NCBI GenBank assembly: GCA_019057865.1
Contig: JAHLWP010000018.1
Coordinates: forward strand, 9,052-73,051
Source of the DNA: Promethearchaeota archaeon
GTDB taxonomy: Archaea; Asgardarchaeota; Lokiarchaeia; Sigyniarchaeales; SOKP01
Length of the DNA stretch: 64,000 nucleotides
Reading direction: 5' to 3'
Below are positions 1 through 54,867 of the stretch, piece after piece. Each line of letters opens with the position of its first letter. Position 1 is the first letter of the stretch. The notes below the pieces were generated by a model. It was not told the origin of the DNA. It did not search any database and was given only the letters and a program-made list of their open reading frames with translations. The position numbers and the translations under genes are program-made.

Positions 1-590
1 ATGCTAAATCCAACACAGTATATATTCATTTGGGCAAATTTTTTATTTGATTGTATCCAATCAATAATTTTTTCAAAATCATCAATTCTTTTTAAAAATT
101 GGCTTCTTTTTCCCGCTCTTTTAGATTTTCCAATCCCTCTTGCATCATAGGCAAGAATTATATAACCATTATAAGCTAAAGGAAAATAGTAGTATTGGAG
201 CGTTATCTTAGTATCAGAAAAACCGTGAGAAATTATAATAATAGCATTTTTTGATTTAATTGCTTCTCGGTTTTTCGGAATGATTAAATCAGCAGATAAA
301 AATCTTTTCTTTTTCTTATTTTTCGTATTAACTTCAATTCTTACTTCCGAAATCTCAAGATCATTGAGATAAAGTGGCATCCACCTTTTAAACCAAATAT
401 CTCTAAAGCTAAAATAGATCTCAAATGGTGTAAATATAATTAGAAATGTTGTTGTTGATAAAATAAGAGATGTTTGAAACGCATTGCCGAAGATATTATC
501 GTTAACGTGCCAGATATAGGCACTAACTATGAAAGATATAATTATTACTATTATACGTTTTTGGTTCTTGGACAGTATAGTCTTCCTCAC
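1..590 (-). CDS. Membrane-anchored alpha/beta-hydrolase (partial, runs off window start; not in ORF track)
   Basis: Manual translation from GTG590 (or ATA578) gives hydrophobic N-terminal segments, then IIISHGFSDTK...LAYNGYIILAYDARGIGKS, typical of serine aminopeptidase S33/lysophospholipase-type hydrolases. Confidence 0.75.
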   Translation of the reverse strand, partial: MRKTILSKNQKRIIVIIISFIVSAYIWHVNDNIFGNAFQTSLILSTTTFLIIFTPFEIYFSFRDIWFKRWMPLYLNDLEISEVRIEVNTKNKKKKRFLSADLIIPKNREAIKSKNAIIIISHGFSDTKITLQYYYFPLAYNGYIILAYDARGIGKSKRAGKRSQFLKRIDDFEKIIDWIQSNKKFAQMNIYCVGFS

Positions 591-39083: not shown

Positions 39084-40193
39084 ATGGTTGAAGAAGTTCT
39101 ACCTAAATCTTTTGAAGATTTAATAAAAGATGTCCATGAACCAGGTATTTGTGGAGAATGTGGGGGATGTGTTAGCTTTTGCTCGGCTCATGAGATAAAA
39201 GCAATTGAGATGTCCGAAACAGGACCTCCAAGATATTATAATAAAGATAATTGCCTAAAATGTGGGATTTGTTATTTAGTATGCCCTCAAACTCACATCT
39301 TAGATAATGAATTAAATGATAAGTATCATTATAAAGTATCTATTGGTAATTGGACAAAAATTGCATCAAGTCAAGCCGCTTCAGAGGAAATTAGGAGAAA
39401 TGCAACAGATGGTGGTGTTGTAACTGCGATTTTAATGTATTTATTAGATAAGAACTTAATAAACGGAGCTATTGTCTCAAAAAGAGAAGGTCCATTTAAT
39501 AGAGTTCCTTTCTTCGCTACAACGAAAGAGGAATTAATAGAAGCTGCAGGATCTCACTATGAAATCTCACAGGGAGTTGTAAGCTTAGAGAAATATAATT
39601 CATTTGTACCCTCGATCACAAAACTAAAAACAGTTGTGAGTTCTGATGCAATGAGCATTGCTGTTGTTGGTACACCATGTCAGATAAATTCTATTAGAAA
39701 GATGCAAGAATTAAGCATTTTACCTGCTCATATAGTAAAATATACATTTGGCTTATTTTGTAATTTAAATTTCTCATTTAACGCTGAAGCTCGTAAAAAA
39801 TTAGAAAAGCGGTTTGATTTTTCTTTTGATGATGTAGAAAAATTAAATATTAAGGAAAATTTGATCGTGCAGCTTAATGACGGTAAAACAAAAGATATTG
39901 ATTTTAAGGATGTTCACGAATTTGCAAGACCTGCATGTTTTGCATGCCGGGACTTTTCTAATGTATACGCAGATATATCATTTGGAGGTTTAGGATCTAA
40001 TGATGGATACACAACCGCGATAATTAGGACAAAAACAGGTGAAGAAATATATAATAATGCTCTTAGAGAAGGATATATACAAGAACCTCCTGATCTAAAT
40101 ACTTCTGTTAAAAAATCAGAGATGCTTGCTAAAGTTATTAGTTTCGGAAAAAGAAAGTTCCAAAGGTATAAAGAAGCTTTAAAAGAAAGGTAA
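39084..40193 (+). CDS. Coenzyme F420 hydrogenase/dehydrogenase beta-subunit (FrhB/FpoF-like) with N-terminal ferredoxin
   Basis: CGECGGCVSFC, DGGVVTAIL, AAGSHY, VGTPCQ, GLFC, CFACRDF..ADISFGGLGS. Confidence 0.88.
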   Translation: MVEEVLPKSFEDLIKDVHEPGICGECGGCVSFCSAHEIKAIEMSETGPPRYYNKDNCLKCGICYLVCPQTHILDNELNDKYHYKVSIGNWTKIASSQAASEEIRRNATDGGVVTAILMYLLDKNLINGAIVSKREGPFNRVPFFATTKEELIEAAGSHYEISQGVVSLEKYNSFVPSITKLKTVVSSDAMSIAVVGTPCQINSIRKMQELSILPAHIVKYTFGLFCNLNFSFNAEARKKLEKRFDFSFDDVEKLNIKENLIVQLNDGKTKDIDFKDVHEFARPACFACRDFSNVYADISFGGLGSNDGYTTAIIRTKTGEEIYNNALREGYIQEPPDLNTSVKKSEMLAKVISFGKRKFQRYKEALKER

Positions 40194-40757: not shown

Positions 40758-42014
40758 ATATCAGGAAATGAAATCGAAAAGTTAATCAAGAGTTCTGATT
40801 TAGATAGATCCTTTATTAAATCTCTATCCAAAATTGAGGGAGCAAAAAGTATATTAGCTTGTTTTCAATGTGGAATGTGCTCATCAAGCTGTCCTATTGA
40901 AGAGCAATTTCCTTTAAGTCCAGATGATTTAACTAAAATAGCTGCAATTGGTGCGAAAAACAAGATTTTAAGAGAAAATGTCCTTAGATATTGCTTAACT
41001 TGCCGAACTTGTCAAGAATATTGCCCACAAGGTGTTGATTTTATTGAATTCATTAAAGCAGCTAGAAGGTTATTAGTAGACAAGGGTATGAAATATGAGG
41101 AGACTCATGATGGGATATTAACTCTTCTAAATGAAATACAAGCAAAACAATCATCAGGCTTAATATTACCCTCTGATTTAATACCAGAGGGATCTCAAAT
41201 ATCTAGAAAGGGTAAGATAGCATATTTTATTGGATGCTTACCAATTCTGGATGTTGTTTTTAATAATTTAGACTTAAATTTGCAAGGAATTGCGCAAAAT
41301 GGAATAAAGATCATGAATGAGGTACTCGAAAAGCCACCAATAATTCTTGGAAATATGAAATGTTGTGGACATGATGCCCTTTGGAAGGGACATTTTGAGA
41401 CTTTTAAAAAATTGGCAGAATATAATGTGAACGAAATCAATAAGTTAGGTATTGAAACTATCATTACAACATGTGCAGAATGTTATAGAACGTTAAAATT
41501 AGATTATCCGAAATATATTGAAAATGCCAATTTTAAGGTCATTCACCTTACAGAATTGATTGCTGATGAAGTTGAAAGTGGTCAATTTGAATTTTTAGAC
41601 TCTCCTAATCGGGCAGTTACATATCATGATCCTTGCAGATTAGGAAGGCACATGAAAGTTTATTCACCTCCTAGAAAAATCCTTAATTCAATGGAAGAAC
41701 ACGGGATCATATTTAATGAAATGCCAAGATCCAAGGAAAATTCTGTTTGCTGTGGAGTAAGTTGCTTTATAAATTGTAATGATCTATCAAAGGCTTTACA
41801 GCTCGATAGAATAAAAGAAGCAAAAAAGGTTGCAGATTTATTAGTAACCTCTTGTCCAAAATGCCAAATTCATTATAATTGTATGCTTCAAGAGAAAAAA
41901 GAAAAAATTTCTGATGAAATAAAGTTAGAAATTACAGATATAACAAATTTAATAGCTAATATGATGGGTTTTTCAGAAGAGAAAAAAGATGAAGTATTAT
42001 TAGCCTCCCCTTAA
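40758..42014 (+). CDS. HdrD-like (HdrC+HdrB/CCG fusion) Fe-S oxidoreductase; probable ATA start
   Basis: ORF-track ATG40875 cuts inside CFQCGMCSSSCP; frame open back to ATA40758 behind AAGGTGA; CCG domains KCCG, YHDPCRLGR, CCG, SCPKC. Confidence 0.82.
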   Translation: MSGNEIEKLIKSSDLDRSFIKSLSKIEGAKSILACFQCGMCSSSCPIEEQFPLSPDDLTKIAAIGAKNKILRENVLRYCLTCRTCQEYCPQGVDFIEFIKAARRLLVDKGMKYEETHDGILTLLNEIQAKQSSGLILPSDLIPEGSQISRKGKIAYFIGCLPILDVVFNNLDLNLQGIAQNGIKIMNEVLEKPPIILGNMKCCGHDALWKGHFETFKKLAEYNVNEINKLGIETIITTCAECYRTLKLDYPKYIENANFKVIHLTELIADEVESGQFEFLDSPNRAVTYHDPCRLGRHMKVYSPPRKILNSMEEHGIIFNEMPRSKENSVCCGVSCFINCNDLSKALQLDRIKEAKKVADLLVTSCPKCQIHYNCMLQEKKEKISDEIKLEITDITNLIANMMGFSEEKKDEVLLASP

Positions 42015-42038
42015 AGTACTTAAGAAGGTTGTAATTAA

Positions 42039-43769
42039 ATGTCTAATAAAGAAGAAAATAAAGAAGAATCTGTAAGGATTGGAACTTTTATTTGTCTATG
42101 TGGCTCAAAAATAGGAAGTGTCATAGATTGTAAATTACTCGCGGATTTTGCGAAGACATTTCCTGATGTAATATATTCTGAAGATAATTTATTTGCTTGC
42201 TCAGAATCAGGGTTAGCTAGTATTAAAAACGCAATTGAAAAATATAATTTAGAGAGAGTTGTAATAGCAGCCTGTACTCCAAGCACACATGAAAGTCTTT
42301 TTCAGAATACAATCCGAGAATCAGGAATAAATCCATATTTATTTGCATTAGTAAATATTCGTGACCAATGTGCTTGGGCGCATATGTCTGAACCTGAAAA
42401 AGCGATGGAAAAAGCAAAAGAGTTAATCGCATTAAACGTTTCAAGAGTTAAGCTTCTGGAACCTATCTATGAAACAACTGTAGATATCTGCCATTCTGCG
42501 TTAGTAATAGGTGGGGGAATAGCCGGACTAACAGCGGCACTTAGTTTAGGTAACCAGGGATTTAACTCATGTATTATTGAAAGAGAAAAAGAACTTGGGG
42601 GATTAGTTAGAAAGATTCACTATATTTTAGGAACTGGAGATCCTCAAGAATATCTTAAAAGTCTAATTGAACAGGTTAAAAATCATAAAAGGATTAAAAT
42701 TTTTACAAATGTTAAGATAGAAGAAATAAATGGATTCATCGGAAATTTCTCAACATTAATAAAATATAATGGTCGAAAAAAAGAACTTGAGTCTGGAGTA
42801 ATTATAGTTGCAACCGGAGGAAGAGAGTACAAGCCGAGAGAATTTTTATATGGTACGGATGAAAGAATCATAACACAGTTGGAATTAGAACAAAAAATTG
42901 TAGCCGATCAAGTAAAAGGACAAACAATAGCAATGATACAGTGTGTCGGATCTAGAAATGAAGAAAGACCAAATTGTAGCAGAATTTGTTGTGTAGAAGC
43001 AATTAAAAATGCTTTAAAATTAAAAGAAAAAAACCCTAGACTAAATGTTTGCATTTTAAATAGAGATATTCATACCTATGGTTTTAAAGAAGATTATTAT
43101 AACGAAGCAAGAGAAAAAGGAGTAATTTTTATTCAATTTGATGAAAATTTTGAACCAATAGTTAATATCAAAACTAATAAATTGACGATTACTGTAAAAG
43201 ATGTGTTATTAAATGAGCGTGTAACCCTTAAAACAGATCTTATTGCTTTAAGCTCTGCTTTTCTTCCCTCAGAAAATATGGAGCTTTCTAAAATGTTAAA
43301 AGTACCACTTGATAAAAACGGATTTTTCTTAGAAGCTCATGTTAAACTACGTCCACTTGATTTCGCAACTAGCGGAATATTCTTATGTGGCGCAGCACAA
43401 TGGCCAAAATTCATTGATGAAACAATTTCACAAGCATTAGGAGCTGCCTCTAGAGCGGGCACTATTTTATCAAAAGAAAAAATAAATATTGTCGGCTCTG
43501 TTGCAGAAATCGATGAGGATATGTGCATTGGTTGCGGTAATTGTAGGGATTTATGCGCCTATAATGCAATAGAAATTGGTGAAAGGCAATCAGAGTATAA
43601 AGCAGAAGATATAATACAAGAACCTATAGTAGAGTTAACTTGGTATAAATCTAAGGTTCTTCAAGCTTTTTGTAAAGGCTGTGGAGCGTGTATTGACGTA
43701 TGTCCTGTTGGAGCCTTGTCTTTAAAGCATTTTACTTTTCAACAAATTTCAAATAATTTTACTAAATAA
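42039..43769 (+). CDS. hdrA: HdrA-family module B
   Basis: GTFICLCG, GGGIAG, EAHVKLRP, CKGCGAC. Confidence 0.85.
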   Translation: MSNKEENKEESVRIGTFICLCGSKIGSVIDCKLLADFAKTFPDVIYSEDNLFACSESGLASIKNAIEKYNLERVVIAACTPSTHESLFQNTIRESGINPYLFALVNIRDQCAWAHMSEPEKAMEKAKELIALNVSRVKLLEPIYETTVDICHSALVIGGGIAGLTAALSLGNQGFNSCIIEREKELGGLVRKIHYILGTGDPQEYLKSLIEQVKNHKRIKIFTNVKIEEINGFIGNFSTLIKYNGRKKELESGVIIVATGGREYKPREFLYGTDERIITQLELEQKIVADQVKGQTIAMIQCVGSRNEERPNCSRICCVEAIKNALKLKEKNPRLNVCILNRDIHTYGFKEDYYNEAREKGVIFIQFDENFEPIVNIKTNKLTITVKDVLLNERVTLKTDLIALSSAFLPSENMELSKMLKVPLDKNGFFLEAHVKLRPLDFATSGIFLCGAAQWPKFIDETISQALGAASRAGTILSKEKINIVGSVAEIDEDMCIGCGNCRDLCAYNAIEIGERQSEYKAEDIIQEPIVELTWYKSKVLQAFCKGCGACIDVCPVGALSLKHFTFQQISNNFTK

Positions 43770-43790
43770 AAAAAAGAGGATAAGCTTAAA

Positions 43791-45476
43791 ATGTTAGAAG
43801 AAGGAAAGAATGAAAAAGAGATTAGAGTAGGAGTATTTGTTTGTCATTGTGGTTCTAATATCGGCGGAGTGATTGATTGTAAGAAACTCGCTAAATATGC
43901 GAAGAAATTACCTAATGTGGTTTATACTGAAGATAATCTTTACACATGCTCTGAAAATGGATTAGCCAGCATTAAGAAGGCAATAAAAGAGTATAATTTA
44001 AATCGGATAGTTGTAGCATCATGTACTCCAAGAACTCATGAACCTTTGTTTCGCGAATGTATCTCAGAAGCAGGATTAAATCCCTACCTTTTCAATTTTG
44101 TCAATATTAGAGAACAATGTTCATGGGTTCATAGGCAATATCCTAATGAAGCCTATGAGAAGGCAAAAGATCTAATTAGCATGGGAGTGGCTAAAGCCAC
44201 AAAATTAGAACCTTTGGAAATGATTACAATAAAAATTAATCCTAATGCTTTAGTAATTGGTGGTGGAATTTGCGGAATGAGTGCTGCACTTAATTTAAGT
44301 AGACAGGGATTTAAAACTTATCTTATTGAAAAGGAGAATGAATTAGGTGGAAGGTTAAATACACTTTATAAACTATTTCCACATGACACCGAGGCTTTAG
44401 AGCTAATAAAGGATATTAAAAATAAAGTTCAAAAAGCTAGGAATTTAGAAGTTTATACAACAACAAGAATAAAAAATATTGATGGATTTGTGGGGAATTA
44501 CGATATAGAAATTGTACAGAATGGTAAAATTATCAATTTAACAGTAGGAGCGATAATCGTTGCTGTAGGTTCTTCGACACTTACACCTGAAGGCATGTTT
44601 GGATATGATGGCAAAATAAGAATAACTCAGTACGAATTGGAAGCAAAACTAAGAAGAAATGAAATAGATGCAAATAATGTTATAATGATACAATGCGTGG
44701 GATCTCGGAATGATGAGAGACCTTATTGTTCAAGCATTTGCTGCATGACAGCTATAAAGAATGCGCTAATTATCAAAGAAAGAAATCCAATTTCAAATAT
44801 TACGATATTATTTAGAGATTTATACTCTCCCGGGACTAATTATGAAAAATATTATAGAAACGCAAGAGAAAAAGGAATACTCTTTATAAAATACAAACCT
44901 GATAAATTGCCTTCTGTAGAAGAAAATCAAATAAAGGTATTTAATGAATACATTGGAGATCATATAATAATTCCTTATGATTTATTGGTATTATCAACTC
45001 CATTAGTTGCCAATGAAGATAATAAGGAACTTGCGCAAAAATTAAAAGTACCATTGGAAGCCAACAATTTCTTCTTAGAAGCCCACGTAAAGTTACGCCC
45101 TAATGATTTTGCGACAGATGGAGTATATGTAGGTGGCTCAGCAAAATGGCCTGTGGACGTCTCAGAAACTATAACTCAAGGTTATGCAGCAGCAGCTAGG
45201 GCGAGTACGATTTTGTCTCATGAGACGATTAAAGTAGAGGGTGCTATTGCTACTGTAGATCCTGAAAAATGCATAGGATGCGGATCCTGCGAAATGATCT
45301 GTCCATTTAATGCTATACAAATAGAAAGGATGGAATTGGGGTTAAAAGCCACCATTTTTTCAGCTGTTTGTAAGGGCTGTGGAGTTTGTGGTGCAAGTTG
45401 TCCTTTAAATGCAATTTCTATGAAACATTTTATGGACCTTCAAATATATGAACAAATATATGCATTATCAGAATGA
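43791..45476 (+). CDS. hdrA: HdrA-family module B (close paralog of 30184..31866)
   Basis: GVFVCHCG, ASCTPRTHE, EAHVKLRP, CKGCGVC. Confidence 0.87.
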   Translation: MLEEGKNEKEIRVGVFVCHCGSNIGGVIDCKKLAKYAKKLPNVVYTEDNLYTCSENGLASIKKAIKEYNLNRIVVASCTPRTHEPLFRECISEAGLNPYLFNFVNIREQCSWVHRQYPNEAYEKAKDLISMGVAKATKLEPLEMITIKINPNALVIGGGICGMSAALNLSRQGFKTYLIEKENELGGRLNTLYKLFPHDTEALELIKDIKNKVQKARNLEVYTTTRIKNIDGFVGNYDIEIVQNGKIINLTVGAIIVAVGSSTLTPEGMFGYDGKIRITQYELEAKLRRNEIDANNVIMIQCVGSRNDERPYCSSICCMTAIKNALIIKERNPISNITILFRDLYSPGTNYEKYYRNAREKGILFIKYKPDKLPSVEENQIKVFNEYIGDHIIIPYDLLVLSTPLVANEDNKELAQKLKVPLEANNFFLEAHVKLRPNDFATDGVYVGGSAKWPVDVSETITQGYAAAARASTILSHETIKVEGAIATVDPEKCIGCGSCEMICPFNAIQIERMELGLKATIFSAVCKGCGVCGASCPLNAISMKHFMDLQIYEQIYALSE

Positions 45477-45497
45477 TTATTGGAGAAAGGTGTTCAA

Positions 45498-46262
45498 ATG
45501 TATAACCCAAAAATTTTAGGATTTTTATGTAATTGGTGCTCATATGCGGGTGCAGATCTTGCCGGTGTTTCGCGATTCAATTATCCACCAAATTTAAGGA
45601 TAATTAGAGTAATGTGCAGCGGAAGAATTGATCCAAATTTTATTTTGACAGCATTCGAAAAAGGTTTAGACGGAGTATTGGTAGCAGGATGTCACCTTGG
45701 AGATTGCCATTATCTTACAGGAAATTATCATACAAAATATAAGATTTTAATGATGAAAAAGATACTTGAAAAACTTGGGTTTGAAACAAAGAGATTACGA
45801 CTTGAATGGGTATCTGCTGCCGAAGGGAAAATATTTGCAGATTTAATAACTGAATTTACTGAAGAACTGATAAAACTAGGACCTTTATCTGTTAAATTTG
45901 ACAAAATTTTGATAAAGAATTTGTTTTTTGCCAAACAAATCTGTTCTGACTTTAGACTTAGATGGTTAATTAGTAGAGAAAGGGATTTAGTTGAAAGTGA
46001 AAATGCTTATGGTGAAAAAATTCCCGAGGAGAAATTTGAAAAATTATTAGACCATATAATAGAAACAGAATTGATTAAAATTAAAATTCAAAATCTTATT
46101 GAAGAAAAGGGTTTATCTGCAGAAGAGATTTCAAGTAAATTAAAAATTCCATCAGAAAAAGTTATGGAACATCTTATTACAATGAATGATGACCATAAAA
46201 TAACATTTAATATCAAAAACAAAATGGCAATATTTGCTAAAGAGGGAGGAATGGTTAAATGA
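45498..46262 (+). CDS. mvhD: MvhD [2Fe-2S] subunit with C-terminal wHTH-like extension
   Basis: FLCNWCSYAGADLAG; tail LSAEEISSKLKIPSEKVMEHL; likely start ATG45498. Confidence 0.85.
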   Translation: MYNPKILGFLCNWCSYAGADLAGVSRFNYPPNLRIIRVMCSGRIDPNFILTAFEKGLDGVLVAGCHLGDCHYLTGNYHTKYKILMMKKILEKLGFETKRLRLEWVSAAEGKIFADLITEFTEELIKLGPLSVKFDKILIKNLFFAKQICSDFRLRWLISRERDLVESENAYGEKIPEEKFEKLLDHIIETELIKIKIQNLIEEKGLSAEEISSKLKIPSEKVMEHLITMNDDHKITFNIKNKMAIFAKEGGMVK

Positions 46263-49200
46263 GTAAACTTGAATCTAAAATTAAAATAGGAGCAGTATTA
46301 GTAGTCGGAGGTGGAATTGCCGGGATACAAACATCATTAGATCTCGCAGAGTTAGGATTTAAAGTCTTTATAGTAGAGAGTTCTCCCGCAATAGGTGGTA
46401 TCATGAGCCAATTAGATAAAACATTTCCTACAAATGACTGTGCAATGTGCATTTTAAGCCCTAAATTAGTAGAGGTGGGTAGACATCAAAACATTCAAAT
46501 AATTACTCACGCTGAAGTTGAGAATCTAGAGGGTTCGGCTGGAAATTTTAATGTTATATTAAAAAAGTATCCAAGATATATCAATGAAGATAAATGTACA
46601 GGTTGTGGACTTTGTTCAGAGTGGTGCCCGATCGAAACTTCAAATGAATATGATGAGGGATTACGAAAAAGAAAAAGTATTTTTATTAAATATCCACAAG
46701 CAATTCCAAAATTACCATCTATAGATAGAACAATTTGTATCGGTTGCCGGTTATGTGAATATATATGTGAAGCAAAAGCCATTGATTTTACTCAAAAAGA
46801 AGAAATGATTGAATTGAAAGTCGGTTCTATAATTGTCGCTCAAGGATCTACTCCCTATAATCCGTTACCTCTAAAAATGTATGGATATGGGCGTTTTTCG
46901 AACGTGATAGCAAGTACCGAATTTGAACGAATATTGAGTGCATCTGGACCTTTCATGGGTCATGTTTTACGACCTTCCGACGGAAAAATACCAGAAAAAA
47001 TAGTATGGATACAATGTATTGGTTCAAGAGATCGAAGAATAGGTAATAATTATTGTTCAGCAGTTTGTTGCATGTACGCAATTAAAGAAGCAATAATTGC
47101 AAAGGAGCATGAACCAGAAATTGACTGTTACATTTTTTTTATAGATATAAGAGCTTATGGAAAAGGATTCGAGGATTATTATCTGAGAGCTCAAGAATTA
47201 GGAATCAAATTCTTAAGAGGAAAAATTGCCTTAATTAATGAAGATCCACAAACGAAAAGTTTAATTATAGCCCATGAAAATAGTGAAACAGGGGAGGTAA
47301 TAGAAGAACATTTTGATATGGTTGTTCTCTCTATAGGTTTGCAACCTTCTAATTCTGGTATTGATTTGAGTAAAAAATTGGGAGTTAATCTTAATAAATA
47401 TAATTTTATTGACACAAATATATTTTCTCCTTTAGAAACTAATAAGCCCGGGATTTTTGTATGTGGGACTTGTTCTGGTCCTAAAGATATTCCTGAAACA
47501 GTAGCAGAAGCAAGTGGCGTGGCTGGAAAAGTCTCTTCATTTCTTTCTACTGAAAGAAATACATTAACATCTATAAAAGAATATCCTCCTGAACTTTCAA
47601 TTGAAGATCAAGAAGCTAGGATTGGAGTATTTATTTGCCACTGTGGAATAAACATCGGTGGAATTGTAAATATCCCTGAAGTAGTTAAATTTGCTAAAAC
47701 TCTTCCTAACGTTGCTTATGCTGAAGAAAATTTGTATACCTGTTCCCAAGATACCCAAGATAAAATGAAACAAATAATAGAAGAATATAAATTAAATAGG
47801 GTTGTTGTAGCCTCTTGTACTCCTCGGACACACGAATCATTGTTCCACAATACCATTAGAGAAGCAGGATTGAATCCTTATTTATTTGAATTAGTAAATA
47901 TTAGAGAACAGTGTTCCTGGGTTCATATGTCCATCCCTGAAGAAGCTACAGAAAAAGCAAAAGACCTAGTAGCAATGAATGTTGCCAAAGCTAAACTTTT
48001 AGAACCAATATATGAAACATCTGTAGATATTACGCACTCCGGTCTAGTAATAGGCGGTGGAATAGCAGGAATGAATGCTGCATTAGAATTAGCAAATCAA
48101 GGTTTTGAAGTTTATTTGATTGAAAAAGAAAAAGAGTTAGGTGGTTTTGTAAGAAATATACATTATGTTCTAGAAGATGGGGATCCTCAAGAATATCTCG
48201 AGCAAATTGTTAATCAAGTATTAAATCATGATAAAATTAAAGTATTCACTAGCACAAAGATTAAAGATGTACAGGGATTCGTCGGAAATTTTCTAGTTAC
48301 AGTGAATTATAATAGTAAGAAAAAAGAACTTGATACTGGAGTAATTATTGTTGCTACAGGTGGAACAGAATATAAACCAATGGAATACATGTATGGAACT
48401 GATGAAAGAATATTAACTCAGCAAGAATTGGAACAAAAGATTGTTTTAAATGAAATAGATGCAGAAACAGTTGTAATGATTCAATGCGTTGGTTCGAGAA
48501 ATGAAGAACGTCCTAATTGTAATAGAATATGTTGTTCTCTTGCATTAAAAAATGCTTTAAAGTTAAAAGAGAAAAACCCTAAGAGGAATATTTGTATTCT
48601 ATATAGAGATATTCGAACTTATGGTTTTAAGGAGAATTACTACGGGGAAGCAAGAGAAAAAGGGATTATTTTTATCCGATATGATGAAAAACTCGAACCC
48701 GAGGTTAGCATTAAAGAGAATAAGTTGATTGTCTCTGTAAATGATTCATTATTAAATGAACAAATAGTTATTAAGCCTGATCTTATAGTATTGAGTGCTG
48801 GCTTTTTACCAACAGAAAATAAAGAATTATCCCAAATGTTAAAAGTTCCCCTTGAACAGAATGGATTTTTCCTAGAAGCACATGTGAAGCTTCGTCCACT
48901 TGATTTTGCTACTGATGGAATTTTCGTATGTGGAACGGCACAATGGCCAAAATTTATTAATGAGACAATTCCACAAGCAAAAGGAGCAGCGGCGAGAGCT
49001 GCTACAATTTTATCTAAAGAAAAAATGAAAATTATAGGTTCAACTGCAGAAATCGAAGAAAATAAATGTATGGGTTGCGGTGAATGTAGGGATATATGTA
49101 TTTATGATGCAATTGAGCCAATTGAGACCATAATTAATTTTAAAGGTATCCTGGATTCAGAAATTCCATATGTAAGTTTAATCCGATATAAATCTAGAGT

Positions 49201-49321
49201 CCTTCCGGCTGTATGTAAAGGATGTGGAGCTTGTGAAGGTGTTTGTCCAGTTGGGGCTATAAGTTTAAAGCATTTCACAAATCAACAATTAATTGCTATG
49301 ATTCAATCTTATTTAGGATAA
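46259..49321 (+). CDS. hdrA: Large two-module HdrA (A+B fusion)
   Basis: DKTFPTNDCAMC, two FAD motifs, several 4Fe-4S motifs. Confidence 0.9.
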   Translation: MSKLESKIKIGAVLVVGGGIAGIQTSLDLAELGFKVFIVESSPAIGGIMSQLDKTFPTNDCAMCILSPKLVEVGRHQNIQIITHAEVENLEGSAGNFNVILKKYPRYINEDKCTGCGLCSEWCPIETSNEYDEGLRKRKSIFIKYPQAIPKLPSIDRTICIGCRLCEYICEAKAIDFTQKEEMIELKVGSIIVAQGSTPYNPLPLKMYGYGRFSNVIASTEFERILSASGPFMGHVLRPSDGKIPEKIVWIQCIGSRDRRIGNNYCSAVCCMYAIKEAIIAKEHEPEIDCYIFFIDIRAYGKGFEDYYLRAQELGIKFLRGKIALINEDPQTKSLIIAHENSETGEVIEEHFDMVVLSIGLQPSNSGIDLSKKLGVNLNKYNFIDTNIFSPLETNKPGIFVCGTCSGPKDIPETVAEASGVAGKVSSFLSTERNTLTSIKEYPPELSIEDQEARIGVFICHCGINIGGIVNIPEVVKFAKTLPNVAYAEENLYTCSQDTQDKMKQIIEEYKLNRVVVASCTPRTHESLFHNTIREAGLNPYLFELVNIREQCSWVHMSIPEEATEKAKDLVAMNVAKAKLLEPIYETSVDITHSGLVIGGGIAGMNAALELANQGFEVYLIEKEKELGGFVRNIHYVLEDGDPQEYLEQIVNQVLNHDKIKVFTSTKIKDVQGFVGNFLVTVNYNSKKKELDTGVIIVATGGTEYKPMEYMYGTDERILTQQELEQKIVLNEIDAETVVMIQCVGSRNEERPNCNRICCSLALKNALKLKEKNPKRNICILYRDIRTYGFKENYYGEAREKGIIFIRYDEKLEPEVSIKENKLIVSVNDSLLNEQIVIKPDLIVLSAGFLPTENKELSQMLKVPLEQNGFFLEAHVKLRPLDFATDGIFVCGTAQWPKFINETIPQAKGAAARAATILSKEKMKIIGSTAEIEENKCMGCGECRDICIYDAIEPIETIINFKGILDSEIPYVSLIRYKSRVLPAVCKGCGACEGVCPVGAISLKHFTNQQLIAMIQSYLG

Positions 49322-49335
49322 TGAGGTGTATAAAT

Positions 49336-49767
49336 ATGGAAAAAGATAAAAAAGGGTTTAATCCAAAAATAATTACATTTTTATGTAATTGGTGTGGTTA
49401 TGCTGGAGCTGATTTAGCAGGAGTAAGTCGTTTTCAATATCCTCCTACCATTAGAATAATAAGGGTAATGTGTTCTGGAAGAATCCAACCCTCTTTAATA
49501 CTTAATGCATTTAATCGTGGAAGTGATGGAGTTTTAGTATGTGGATGCCATTTAGGGGATTGCCATTATATTTCGGGAAATGAAAAAGCTGAGGAAGGAA
49601 TTAAGATAACTCAAAAATTACTTGATTTTTTAAGAATTGAACCAGAAAGACTTAGATTGGAATGGGTATCAGCAGCGGAAGGGGCTAAGTTTGCAGATGT
49701 AGTAAAAAATTTTACCGAGCATCTTATTTCAATCGGACCAATTAATATAGAAAGCGAGAGTGTGTAA
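49336..49767 (+). CDS. mvhD: MvhD [2Fe-2S] subunit
   Basis: FLCNWCGYAGADLAG, GCHLGDCHY; ATG49336 lies 6 nt after GAGGTGT. Confidence 0.9.
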   Translation: MEKDKKGFNPKIITFLCNWCGYAGADLAGVSRFQYPPTIRIIRVMCSGRIQPSLILNAFNRGSDGVLVCGCHLGDCHYISGNEKAEEGIKITQKLLDFLRIEPERLRLEWVSAAEGAKFADVVKNFTEHLISIGPINIESESV

Positions 49768-49772
49768 GAAAT

Positions 49773-52700
49773 ATGGTAGAGAGTAATAATTCTGAAAAAC
49801 AAGTATTGGTAATAGGGGGTGGTGTAGCTGGGATTTCTGCTGCCCTAGACCTAGCAGATCAAGGTCATCTTGTCTATTTAGTTGAAAAAAGCCCCTCAAT
49901 TGGAGGGAAAATGGCTCAATTGGATAAAACTTTTCCGACTTTGGATTGTTCAATATGTATTTTAGCACCTAAAATGGTCGAATGTGCTCGTCACCCTCGA
50001 ATTGAACTTTTAACTTATTCAGAAGTGAAAAGAGTTGACCGAATTCGTAATGGATCTACCTTCAAGGTAAGAATTCTACTTAAACCTAGATATATTGATA
50101 GTTCAAAATGCACTTCATGTGGAACATGTGCGCAAAAATGCCCCTATAAAAATTTTCCCTCTGAATTTGAACAAGGGTTAAGTAAAAGAGGTGCTGCGTA
50201 TATTCCTTTCCTTCAAGCAGTTCCAGCTGTATATCTTATTGATTCAGAAAATTGTACTTACTTTAAAAATGGTACATGCAAGGTATGTGAAAAATTTTGT
50301 CCGGCCCACGCAGTAGATTTTGAACAAAAACCAAAAGAAATAGAAATTGAAGTCGCTTCCATTATAGTAGCCACTGGTTTTGATCTAATGGATGTTAGTT
50401 CCTTAGAGAGGTACGGATATGGAAAATATTCCAATGTAACTGTATCCTTGGAATATGAAAGAATTATGTGTGCATCAGGTCCAACTAAAGGCGAAATTTT
50501 ACGCCCTTCCGATAATAAACACCCCCACAAGATAGGATTTATTCTATGTGTTGGATCGAGAAATGTTAATTTAAAGCCTTATTGTTCTAAAATTTGTTGT
50601 ATGTATGCTACAAAAGAAGCAATTATGACGATGGAACACCATTCTGATGCAGAAATTTTGGTTTTTTATAATGATTTACGCACGATTGGAAAGAATCATA
50701 ATGAATTTATTGATAGAGCTAAATCAGATTATAAGGTTCAATATGTCAGAGGTTTACCTAATAAGATTTATGAAAATACAGAAACAAAAGATCTTATAAT
50801 AAGACATAAAGACTTTGACACAGGTGAAATTAAATTTGATACAGTAGATATGGTTGTTTTATTTCCAGCAGTTATACCTAGCAGAGGAGCAGAGGAATTT
50901 AATGATATATTAGGGGTCGAAATGGACGAATATGGTTTTATAAAGCCAGTATCATCAACAAATAATATTGAAACTAATATTCCTGGAATTTATGTATGTG
51001 GATGTGTTCATGGTCCAGAAGATATTTCAACCTCTGTTGCTGAGGCTAGCGGTGCTGCTAGTAAAGCAGCTTCTAGAACTTCAATAACTACTATAGATGA
51101 AATAAAAGAAGATATTGTTGAAAGAAAAGTATCTAAAAGCGATCCTCCTCGAATCGGTGTTTTTATCTGTCATTGTGGTTCTAATATTGCAGGCTTTGTG
51201 GATGTTAAAAAGGTAGCGGAAGAAATTAAAACTGTTCCTGATGTAGCTTATGTTGAAAGAAATTTATATACTTGTTCGGAAGAATCTCAGAATAGTATAA
51301 AGGCGGCAATTGAAAAATATGATTTAAATAGGGTTGTAATTGCTGCGTGTACTCCTAGAACCCATCTTCCATTATTTCAGGGCACTTGTCATGAAGTAGG
51401 TCTTAATCCATATTTAGTCCTATTTGCAAGTATTAGAGAATTAGTGAGTTGGGTTCACATGTCAGAACCTGAAAAAGCTACACAAAAAGCAAAGGAACAG
51501 ATTTTAATGTGTATCGCAAAATCTCGGCTTGTAGAACCATTACACGATATTGAAGTTAATGTATTACCTGCTTCATTAGTTATTGGAGGGGGAATTGCAG
51601 GCATGACTGCAGCATTGGCTATGGCAAAAAAAGGATTTAAAGTATACATCGTAGAGCGGAGTGAAAATCTTGGTGGATTCATTCGGAACTTAAATGAAAT
51701 TAATACTGAGGGAACCTCTTCAGAACAAGTACTAACTCCAATATTGCAAGCAATAAAGACAAATCCTAATATAGAAGTTTTCATATCCTCAACAATAAAA
51801 GCTGTAAATGGTTCAATTGGCAACTTTCTAATAGTTATTGAACAAAACAGTGAAGAAAAAGAAATTAAAACTGGCACTATTATTGTTGCTGTGGGAGGAA
51901 AAGAATTTAAACCAAATGGATATTACCATTATGAAGAATATGAAAATATCTTTACAAATTTAGAACTTGAAGGTTTAATTCGAAATGAGCAATTACAAGA
52001 TGGTGAATCTATTGCTTTTATTCAATGCGTTGGTTCCCGTGAAGAACAAGGAAGAACTTATTGTTCATTGACTTGTTGTGAAGAATCTATAAAAAATGCT
52101 TTAACTGTCAAGAAGCGGTATCCTAATTCTCAGATTTTCATATTTTATCGAGACATAAGAGTATCTTATAAAGAAGAGATTGAATATAGAAAAGCAAGAG
52201 AAAAAGGCATTAATTTTATACAATATAAACCGGAAAATCCCCCAATGTTGAAAAATAAGGATGACAAATTAATATTAAATGTGTCTGATGCTTTAACAAG
52301 AATGAAATTCGAATTATCTTTAGATAAAGTAGTGCTTGCTACTCCTTTAATAGCATGGGAAGAAAATAAAAAGCTATCTGAAATGTTAAAAGTCCCCCTT
52401 GATAAAAACGGTTTCTTTTTTGAAGCACATCCTAAATTAAGACCTGTTGATTTTGCTACGGATGGAATCTTCACATGTGGAACTGCTCAATGTCCTAAAA
52501 ATATAAAAGAATCTTTAAGTCAAGCTCTGGGCGCGGCATCTAGAGCTTTAATCCCCTTAATGAATAGTAAAGCATCGGTCGAGGGTGCTACATCAAGTTT
52601 ACCTGAATTTAATAAAAAATTATGTACAGGCTGTGAAGTCTGTCTAACTGTATGTCCTTATAATGCCATCTCTAAGAACGAATTAGATGAGATTGAAATA

Positions 52701-52844
52701 AATCAAGTTCTTTGTAAAGGCTGTGGAGTATGTGGGGCTACGTGTACTAATCAAGCTCTTGTAATAAAACATTTCACAAATGAGCAAATTATTTCTCAAA
52801 TCAATTCTTGTAAAGAAGAAAAACTGGTTGAACTAAAGTTATAA
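49773..52844 (+). CDS. hdrA: Large two-module HdrA (A+B fusion)
   Basis: DKTFPTLDCSIC, two FAD motifs, EAHPKLRP, C-terminal ferredoxin. Confidence 0.9.
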   Translation: MVESNNSEKQVLVIGGGVAGISAALDLADQGHLVYLVEKSPSIGGKMAQLDKTFPTLDCSICILAPKMVECARHPRIELLTYSEVKRVDRIRNGSTFKVRILLKPRYIDSSKCTSCGTCAQKCPYKNFPSEFEQGLSKRGAAYIPFLQAVPAVYLIDSENCTYFKNGTCKVCEKFCPAHAVDFEQKPKEIEIEVASIIVATGFDLMDVSSLERYGYGKYSNVTVSLEYERIMCASGPTKGEILRPSDNKHPHKIGFILCVGSRNVNLKPYCSKICCMYATKEAIMTMEHHSDAEILVFYNDLRTIGKNHNEFIDRAKSDYKVQYVRGLPNKIYENTETKDLIIRHKDFDTGEIKFDTVDMVVLFPAVIPSRGAEEFNDILGVEMDEYGFIKPVSSTNNIETNIPGIYVCGCVHGPEDISTSVAEASGAASKAASRTSITTIDEIKEDIVERKVSKSDPPRIGVFICHCGSNIAGFVDVKKVAEEIKTVPDVAYVERNLYTCSEESQNSIKAAIEKYDLNRVVIAACTPRTHLPLFQGTCHEVGLNPYLVLFASIRELVSWVHMSEPEKATQKAKEQILMCIAKSRLVEPLHDIEVNVLPASLVIGGGIAGMTAALAMAKKGFKVYIVERSENLGGFIRNLNEINTEGTSSEQVLTPILQAIKTNPNIEVFISSTIKAVNGSIGNFLIVIEQNSEEKEIKTGTIIVAVGGKEFKPNGYYHYEEYENIFTNLELEGLIRNEQLQDGESIAFIQCVGSREEQGRTYCSLTCCEESIKNALTVKKRYPNSQIFIFYRDIRVSYKEEIEYRKAREKGINFIQYKPENPPMLKNKDDKLILNVSDALTRMKFELSLDKVVLATPLIAWEENKKLSEMLKVPLDKNGFFFEAHPKLRPVDFATDGIFTCGTAQCPKNIKESLSQALGAASRALIPLMNSKASVEGATSSLPEFNKKLCTGCEVCLTVCPYNAISKNELDEIEINQVLCKGCGVCGATCTNQALVIKHFTNEQIISQINSCKEEKLVELKL

Positions 52845-53079
52845 GTTCTGGTAAGAGGAGATTTTACCTATATAAGTAGACATTAAAGGAAGGAAATAAG
52901 TAAAATTACTTTTAAAAAATTTTTATATCCTTTTATTTTGTGTTTGTTATTTGAAAAAAATCAATAATGAATCTAATTCAATAGATAGAGTCAATAATAC
53001 CTTCAAATATTCTTTTTCTCCATACTTGTTTTTAAAATAGACATCTAATACACCAGTAATCGTAAAAAAGACTCCAAGT

Positions 53080-53259
53080 CTAATTAATCTTGAAGAATTA
53101 GAAATCTCAGTCCATAATATACAAAGATTGCCGTTGTTCATAAAAAATCTTAAAAACCTTAAAATCTTGAGAGTTTACTCTTCAGAGAATCTGAAGAATA
53201 AAGAAAGACCAAAATGGTTAAAGGAGATGCCTAACTTAGTAAAAATTCAATTTTATTAA
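53080..53259 (+). pseudogene. Start-less 3' fragment of a leucine-rich-repeat gene
   Basis: Translates LINLEELEISVHNIQRLPLFIKNLKNLKILRV...MPNLVKIQFY*; upstream in-frame TAG at 53038. Confidence 0.6.
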
Positions 53260-53307
53260 CCATTAACAAGACTGAAATTATTTTAAAAGTTATAATGATA
53301 CAAGTAT

Positions 53308-53404
53308 AAAAAGAAAAGAAAAATAAAAAACTTGTTTAAAAAAATGGATTTTTGAATTGTACTTAGGAGATTGCCCTGTTAGAAACATCGGTGGATTACC
53401 TGCG
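53308..53404 (-). repeat. Actin 3'-end remnant 1: codons QVIHRCF* plus ~70 nt of actin 3'UTR/poly-T terminator
   Basis: 53379-53404 matches 54868-54893 with 3 synonymous changes; 53308-53378 aligns with 54796-54867. Confidence 0.9.
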
Positions 53405-53416
53405 TAATCCTCTAAA

Positions 53417-53518
53417 CTTAATACATCAGTAAAGAAATCAGAAATGCTAGCTAAAATTATAAGCTTTGGGAAAAGAAAATTTGAGAGATACAATAAAGCA
53501 TTAAAAAAAAGGAAATAG
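53417..53518 (+). pseudogene. 3'-end remnant of the FrhB-like gene (39084..40193)
   Basis: LNTSVKKSEMLAKIISFGKRKFERYNKALKKRK* vs LNTSVKKSEMLAKVISFGKRKFQRYKEALKER* (27/32 identical); followed by a T-rich terminator-like tract. Confidence 0.92.
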
Positions 53519-53972
53519 GTAAAATTATTTATTTTTTTATTTCTTCTTTTATTTCGTAAGATTCTGCTAGATGTGGTATTAATAATAAACAACAAGCTAA
53601 AAATAACTATAAATCTTTAATGCTTCTCGTCTAGCCGATCCCTTCAGGTAAGTCTGACTCTGATGTGCGAAATTATATCGATTTCATGGCAATGGATTAT
53701 TACTTCTCCCAATATCCAAGATTAGTAGTTTTCTTTTTTTGGATTATATTTTATTTATTTTTAAGAATTGGCTTTTTTTACGATTTCTTTGTTGTTTAAT
53801 TTTATTAATAGATTTTATTGATTTGAGAAAAAGCATTCGAATTTCGGCTTTTTTGACATGGTAAAGACGATATTTATCATCAATTTTTTGACTCATTTAA
53901 GAAAAAATAATCATGAGAAAAAAGAATAAAAAAATAAATGAAAAAATAAAAAACTTGAAGAGGTTTACCTCT

Positions 53973-54040
53973 TTAGAAACATCGGTGTATTACTTGTGGA
54001 CCCATTTCTTTGTATTCTCGCCTCGTGACCCACATACGAT
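53973..54040 (-). pseudogene. Actin 3'-end remnant 2 ([21 protein letters not shown])
   Basis: 21/21 aa identical to the actin C-terminus; 12 substitutions in 66 nt, all at third codon positions. Confidence 0.95.
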
Positions 54041-54258: not shown

Positions 54259-54600
54259 TTATTTTGCAATATATTCGTCTGGATCGCCACCATCTTCGAG
54301 ATGTTCAATGAAATTTTTCAATCCATTTAAAATAGTTGTAAGAGAACGCTTTTTTATTTTTTCATGCTTTAAAATTTTATAATCAACCCAATACGATAAT
54401 TCTGTCATGTCGCCTTTCTCTTTTAATATATAGCCATATCCATTAAAATCAGGGTGGTTTACTTTCAATGAAAGACTTTCATTTTCTATTCGATCTGTAA
54501 TAGTGATATTCAATTTAGAAGCGAGAGTTATGTTTTCTAAAACCTCCCAAATTTTTTTTGGAGGAGCTCTAATTTCGATATTTGATTCAAACTTAGGCAT
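54259..54600 (-). CDS. SRPBCC/polyketide-cyclase (START-like) family protein, short and possibly internally deleted
   Basis: N-terminal IEIRAPPKKIWEVL and C-terminal helix LNGLKNFIE; only 113 aa. Confidence 0.65.
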   Translation of the reverse strand: MPKFESNIEIRAPPKKIWEVLENITLASKLNITITDRIENESLSLKVNHPDFNGYGYILKEKGDMTELSYWVDYKILKHEKIKKRSLTTILNGLKNFIEHLEDGGDPDEYIAK

Positions 54601-54795: not shown

Positions 54796-54820
54796 AAAAA
54801 AAGAAAAGAAAAATAAAAAA
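54796..54820 (-). terminator. Poly-T terminator-like tract downstream of actin
   Basis: T-rich tract on the minus strand ~50-70 nt after the stop; retained in the remnant copy at 53308-53330. Confidence 0.55.
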
Positions 54821-54867
54821 CGGGTTAAAAAAATGGATTTTTGATTTACGTTGAGGAGATTTCCCCA

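Follow-up and report, generated by a model that had tools for sequence, protein, structure and literature searches.

In homology-facilitated illegitimate recombination, which has been described experimentally in bacteria, one homologous anchor and one illegitimate joint add foreign DNA with no integrase involved, usually with loss of recipient DNA. At icd/icdC of Escherichia coli, with prophage e14, a displaced 3′ end marks an integration site within a protein gene. In yeast, FBA1 alleles under WHO homing are nearly identical in their 5′ and highly diverged in their 3′ parts, and 3′ fragments of the host gene are stacked downstream on the same strand with the most recent block closest to the live gene (Coughlan et al. 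2020, PMC7282813). In archaea, terminators made of U-tracts and read by aCPSF1 are established, and the Lokiarchaeota orthologue is reported to cooperate with U-tracts (PMC8716108, PMC7515710). Neither orphan lokiactin tails nor lokiactin introns are described in the literature searched.

The window analysed here is a stretch of 64,000 nt from a Promethearchaeota archaeon (genome G000) with several 3′ ends of lokiactin (Table 1). The 97-nt stretch at 53308-53404 is a former working actin tail and now a dead scar, made up of the last seven codons and an ordinary U-rich terminator. On the minus strand, 53379-53402 reads QVIHRCF and a stop codon, with three differences from live actin that are all synonymous third-position changes; identity to the actin allele begins at 53404, and the orphan (tail 3) has neither a start nor coding sequence upstream. 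The first-pass annotation had described this peptide with its three synonymous changes and an aligning UTR, and had held the match to be beyond chance. Both statements were borne out: the 97 nt align with the live actin end and its UTR at 84.5% identity (E about 2e-23, blastn, whole genome), and a degenerate pattern for QVIHRCF-stop gave three matches in G000, all at the actin locus, and none in the control. The junction of tail 3 was seen again in L169, which belongs to a separate ENA assembly, and in the Logan contig L165, which is possibly the source sample itself; it is therefore no assembly artefact. A 101-aa ORF across this region (53290-53595, minus strand) was rejected as a gene, as it has no Pfam match and is a shadow formed by the U-tract and the antisense strand of frhB.

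Table 1. Features of the frhB-actin interval, in positions of the window (UTR1 and UTR3, 3′ UTRs of live actin and of tail 3).
Feature	Position	Strand	Remarks
Live frhB-like gene	39084..40193	+	5′ 700 nt ~99% like siblings; 3′ 400 nt ~24% divergent
Hdr/MvhD gene cluster, between live frhB and scars	40875..52844	+	
Older, decayed frhB-like tail with U-tract	52813..52941	+	
LRR gene 3′ remnant, converging on UTR3	53080..53259	+	
UTR3	53308..53378	-	Weak G/C stem, A-tract, then U-tracts; 85% identical to live UTR
Orphan lokiactin tail 3	53379..53404	-	2 bases of a Pro codon, then QVIHRCF and stop
Junction of actin tail and frhB tail, non-homologous	53393..53410	.	Untemplated base 53405 within 7-bp inverted repeat
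Displaced frhB-like tail, last ~36 codons	53406..53518	+	99% identical to intact frhB of sibling L164
Orphan lokiactin tail 2	53973..54040	-	22 codons; 12 synonymous, 0 non-synonymous differences from live actin
Small SRPBCC-like cargo gene	54259..54600	-	Weak Pfam PF10604 match, E 0.016
Live actin 3′ UTR (UTR1)	54797..54867	-	
Live lokiactin, 381 aa	54868..56013	-	

Along the plus strand, the left part of the interval runs from frhB through the Hdr cluster, the decayed frhB tail and the LRR scrap, all pointing right, to UTR3 and actin tail 3, which point left. The right part begins with the rightward frhB tail and a spacer, followed by UTR2 with actin tail 2, the SRPBCC-like gene, and UTR1 with actin, all pointing left. 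The type of UTR that follows tail 2 (UTR2) is live in genome G012, and the convergent arrangement of frhB and actin is common to many relatives. Actin tail 3 and the frhB-like tail stand head-to-head on opposite strands, one base apart. This single base (53405) is untemplated, there is no direct microhomology, and the junction could possibly have arisen by snap-back end joining. Compared with live frhB, the displaced frhB-like tail differs in 16 synonymous and 9 non-synonymous codons.

Both halves of the scar were recovered from sibling assemblies, which were chosen by their identical actin protein. L164 and L163 match the window at ~99% (L164 98.9%) from actin to 53406 and then continue into an intact frhB. 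L157-159 and L162 match it at 99.7% from 53378 through the Hdr cluster; here UTR3 is attached to a fragment of a different gene and the actin coding bases are absent. In L155 and L161, UTR3 is deleted and a whole or a partial frhB is attached to the same Hdr side, at 53114 and 52915. The four junctions (53405, 53378, 53114 and 52915) share the same right end and have different left partners, and some of the sibling junctions carry ~3-5 nt of microhomology, as judged by eye. L164 and the junction contig L169 belong to one ENA assembly, and in L169 the junction still has the donor base, which has since changed in the window. The L164 and L157-type haplotypes supply both halves, so tail 3 is the actin end of the haplotype that carries the Hdr cluster, joined to the cut 3′ end of frhB in a block that belongs to a second haplotype found alongside it (actin, SRPBCC-like gene, tail 2, frhB). 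We infer the direction of transfer, as no haplotype in which actin runs straight into UTR3 was found. The flanks of the window are themselves mosaic, closer to L164 within 3 kb of actin and closer to L157 beyond, which speaks mildly for an import anchored in actin, with the resident tail pushed out. An extra GNAT gene is common to the window and L157. A longer tandem intermediate, worn down by separate deletions, is a further possibility.

The live genes on both sides of the interval point to more than one such event. Five conspecific actin alleles encode one protein and differ by 0.5% over nt 1-600, by 9.8% over nt 601-900 and by 16% (maximum 21%) over nt 901-1146; the GNAT gene upstream of actin, used as a control, differs by 0.3-0.8%. 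In the window, the 3′ ~500 nt of live lokiactin diverge by up to 21% from conspecific alleles with the amino acids unchanged, and both orphans, tails 2 and 3, carry synonymous differences only. This is the signature of repeated replacement of the 3′ third within one species. Live frhB has the same 3′ jump in divergence (~24% over its last 400 nt), and this part of the gene is a foreign tail. Other species have actin orphans as well (L005, L015, L030, L036, L037, L046, L052, L095, L122, L125 and L132). In L095 (11211-11330) an orphan actin tail with its UTR lies in inverted orientation upstream of actin, and L005 (5095-6493) carries, behind a histone-like ORF, a second actin that is nearly complete and differs in its N-terminus. 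Second pattern matches on other contigs of relatives were rejected as orphans, since they are divergent full-length lokiactin paralogues (82-85% identity; L084, L086, L087, L089, L092 and L094), most of which are followed by the same small ORF.

We infer, with moderate confidence, that the scar at tail 3 arose by homologous crossover in a conserved flanking gene combined with end joining without homology on the far side. DNA of one strain would cross over by homology inside the flanking gene, most likely in actin, so that the resident tail is pushed aside; less likely, the crossover would take place in frhB, and tail 3 would then represent the distal end of the imported block. On its other side, the imported DNA would be joined without homology, later deletions may have trimmed the junction of tail 3, and UTR3 would have been carried along as an ordinary U-tract terminator. 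Since both conserved genes can act as anchors, the interval between frhB and actin would be a hotspot for cargo. The haplotype pair, the non-homologous junction, the synonymous-only divergence and the 3′-biased mosaicism were all observed by sequence comparison. As in homology-facilitated illegitimate recombination, mosaic alleles on one side mark a homologous anchor, and foreign DNA would be added through one illegitimate joint with no integrase. Unlike in that process, a second gene end is left behind at actin, and natural uptake of DNA by Lokiarchaeia would have to be assumed. The mosaic flanks and the failure to find actin joined directly to UTR3 count against this explanation. So does the position of the orphan starts in relatives, five of eight short orphans beginning inside a 9-nt span at the Met-Trp codons (-61..-69; P about 0.004 under a uniform model, for an unbiased set with some boundaries placed by eye and with non-independent kin); random joining does not predict such clustering. 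The start of tail 3 itself, at -26, lies outside this cluster.

The clustering of orphan starts at R|MW in relatives would agree better with a WHO-like homing endonuclease that cleaves lokiactin close to the 3′ end and provides a resistant tail in exchange, so that the orphans would be the displaced ends; we regard this alternative, the main rival as a trigger, as rather unlikely. It draws on the actin alleles, which are conserved in the 5′ part (0.5%) and divergent in the 3′ part (16-21%) as reported for FBA1, and on the stacking of same-strand 3′ fragments downstream with the newest block nearest the live gene, again as at FBA1 (PMC7282813). Against it, no nuclease ORF was found between actin and the orphans in the window or its siblings; in the window this stretch holds the SRPBCC-like ORF and gene scraps alone. 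Moreover, tblastn with three nuclease-like proteins of G000 and ORF clustering revealed no nuclease in the 4 kb that follow 80 lokiactin genes. Tail 3, which begins at -26 and not at -63, has a non-homologous left partner. The homing version would have to assume that the nuclease gene has since been lost at the locus or acts in trans, and that tail 3 was trimmed later or cut at a second site. In contrast to FBA1, the far junction at the actin locus is non-homologous and both flanking genes, actin and frhB, are affected. The actin locus thus resembles WHO loci in outcome but does not belong with them, because its cassette lacks a nuclease.

Displaced gene ends are not confined to this interval. 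In G000, about 14 genes including actin and frhB have same-strand orphan 3′ ends downstream, and the scan also returned four upstream 5′ stubs and no opposite-strand orphans. In about 12 further genes, the orphan 3′ ends lie 0.7-5 kb downstream with cargo in between (C3, C5, C9, C13, C18, C25, C37, C42, C52, C60 and C66). Most of this cargo is non-recombinase and comprises PIN toxin-antitoxin pairs as well as glycosyltransferase-like and other metabolic genes; in two cases it is nuclease-like, and these two speak for the homing reading. Behind a MoxR-like AAA gene (L181:1736-4600, G000 C37:31735-34600), a free-standing 588-aa LAGLIDADG ORF lies in a WHO-like arrangement between the live end of the AAA-ATPase gene and its displaced 16-codon tail (6 synonymous and 1 non-synonymous differences). 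In the same arrangement, a putative Zn-ribbon/DUF559-like nuclease lies between a gene end and a displaced tail of 72 codons (L185, G000 C66:74649-77009), and a homologue of it, 824 aa long, lies right behind an intron-bearing actin in L136 (804-3278). Tail-swapping nucleases therefore probably exist in the lineage of the window, and the LAGLIDADG arrangement, at least one clear case in G000, makes the homing model testable. A separate 244-aa LAGLIDADG ORF (L182:2668-3718, G000 C18) has on both sides an 80-bp direct repeat (86%) resembling the 3′ portion of a tRNA gene with an intron.

The homing reading also gains from relatives in which putative bulge-helix-bulge (BHB) introns interrupt the same 20 actin codons. 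Nine inserts of 30-54 nt were found in the last 50 codons of five lokiactin genes (L136:484-717, L146 in G085, L144 in G067, L145 in G079 and L143 in G081). Excision of each at a BHB motif, whose central helix forms three to four of four pairs, restores the conserved protein; four of the nine are 31 nt long and shift the frame, and two coincide exactly with the R|MW breakpoint cluster. They are putative tRNA-type mRNA introns, for which cbf5 is the sole archaeal precedent found in the literature searched (PMC2738675). In L122 (6517-6530), the bases right before the orphan (GTGA AA A, then Met-Trp) are identical to the 3′ end of the BHB intron that G085 has at this site, a single case hinting that the displaced allele carried an intron. 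Furthermore, a module converging on actin was observed in L005, L013/L184, L033, L037, L155-L162 and L175. It consists of the C-terminal domain, with an invariant RHH motif, of a giant protein, followed by a zinc-ribbon gene of ~150 aa, and resembles a polymorphic tip with its immunity pair. The giant protein has an open frame of 12,745 aa in G003 and no fold match, and the module is often cut short at the 5′ side, where it adjoins an orphan actin tail or UTR. The recurrent actin-adjacent RHH-motif ORF (~800 aa), which is the tip of this giant protein, was rejected as a homing nuclease, since neither Pfam nor fold comparison with Atlas and PDB gave a match (model pLDDT 65), and this speaks against homing at actin. 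A wider version of the homing idea, which we put forward as a tentative possibility, makes the last 20 lokiactin codons a contested site. Selfish tail-swapping endonucleases would keep installing synonymous ends there and would turn the frhB-actin interval into an integrase-free gene-capture array; the tRNA-type BHB introns of relatives would arise with this traffic or protect against it, and tail 3 would be its fossil.

As at icd/icdC with e14, an orphan gene end with synonymous differences lies downstream of a restored gene, and many actin orphans begin at the non-degenerate 8-mer ATGTGGGT. The orphans could accordingly be read as attR scars of integrase-driven elements whose attachment core would be the invariant Met-Trp-Val codons of actin, a reading that we consider very unlikely. 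No tyrosine integrase (PF00589) was found near actin in five genomes and none was seen in the 17-kb cargo between actin and frhB of G108. Three patterns for the actin tail gave no match among the viral contigs of IMG/VR, an absence that applies to this collection. Tail 3 itself has no Met-Trp-Val core, and in contrast to icd/icdC, the actin locus has neither an integrase nor an element body and its boundaries vary.

The first-pass annotation had suggested a constrained element in the actin 3′ UTR, either a terminator or a site for mRNA stability or protein binding; of these, the terminator is the likely one. Conservation indeed exceeds that of the sequence further downstream: across 78 lokiactin loci, positions +1..80 after the stop score 51.6 vs 27.9 for shuffled sequence, and positions +81..160 score 23.3 vs 21.7. 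The conserved feature is terminator-like. Several U-tracts follow directly after the actin stop with a sense-strand bias, as in archaeal U-tract terminators; the U-tract motif occurs in 52 of the 78 loci, and T content peaks at 0.74 at +51..60. What did not hold up is an actin-specific structured or protein-binding element, given the U-tracts and the occurrence of the motif in G000 after nine genes, actin and eight others, on the sense strand and never on the antisense strand. The covariation test proposed for lokiactin 3′ UTRs was negative, with neither a consensus fold nor covariation in a 14-sequence alignment of the UTR family, and the actin UTR had no Rfam match. A weak stem tendency after the stop is present across loci (MFE -4.7 vs -2.8 shuffled), but a covarying post-stop hairpin was rejected for lack of covariation. 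Since conservation is confined to the U-tracts, covariation and Rfam matches are absent and the motif follows other genes, the UTR is likely a generic U-tract terminator, termination itself being predicted. The actin UTR resembles the archaeal aCPSF1 terminators (PMC8716108, PMC7515710) in that more than one U4+ tract lies in the ~70 nt that follow the stop. UTR3 is a putative terminator of the aCPSF1 type, possibly a two-way one, and at most it would still be useful as a terminator for convergent transcription. The additional likeness of UTR1 and UTR3 is best explained by descent within one lineage-specific UTR family; the non-U part of the UTR is common to few lineages only, as descent predicts. 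Retention of the 97-nt unit for a function of its own, as an actin-specific RNA element or a small RNA (a sponge, stability element or protein-binding site), is hardly credible, for although UTR1 and UTR3 are 85% identical while three of eight third positions differ, and UTR3 is retained in L157-type strains, the UTR lacks a consensus structure, covariation and an Rfam match, its motif also follows other genes, and L155 and L161 have lost UTR3 by deletion.

The interest of tail 3 thus lies in the process that it records and not in its UTR, which is ordinary as an RNA element. That a near-invariant cytoskeletal protein has alleles whose 3′ third is replaced again and again within one species matters for nucleotide-level phylogenies and for strain binning. 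With both parent haplotypes in hand, the scar documents how an Asgard archaeon gains and swaps cargo by anchoring at the ends of core genes, with no integrase involved.
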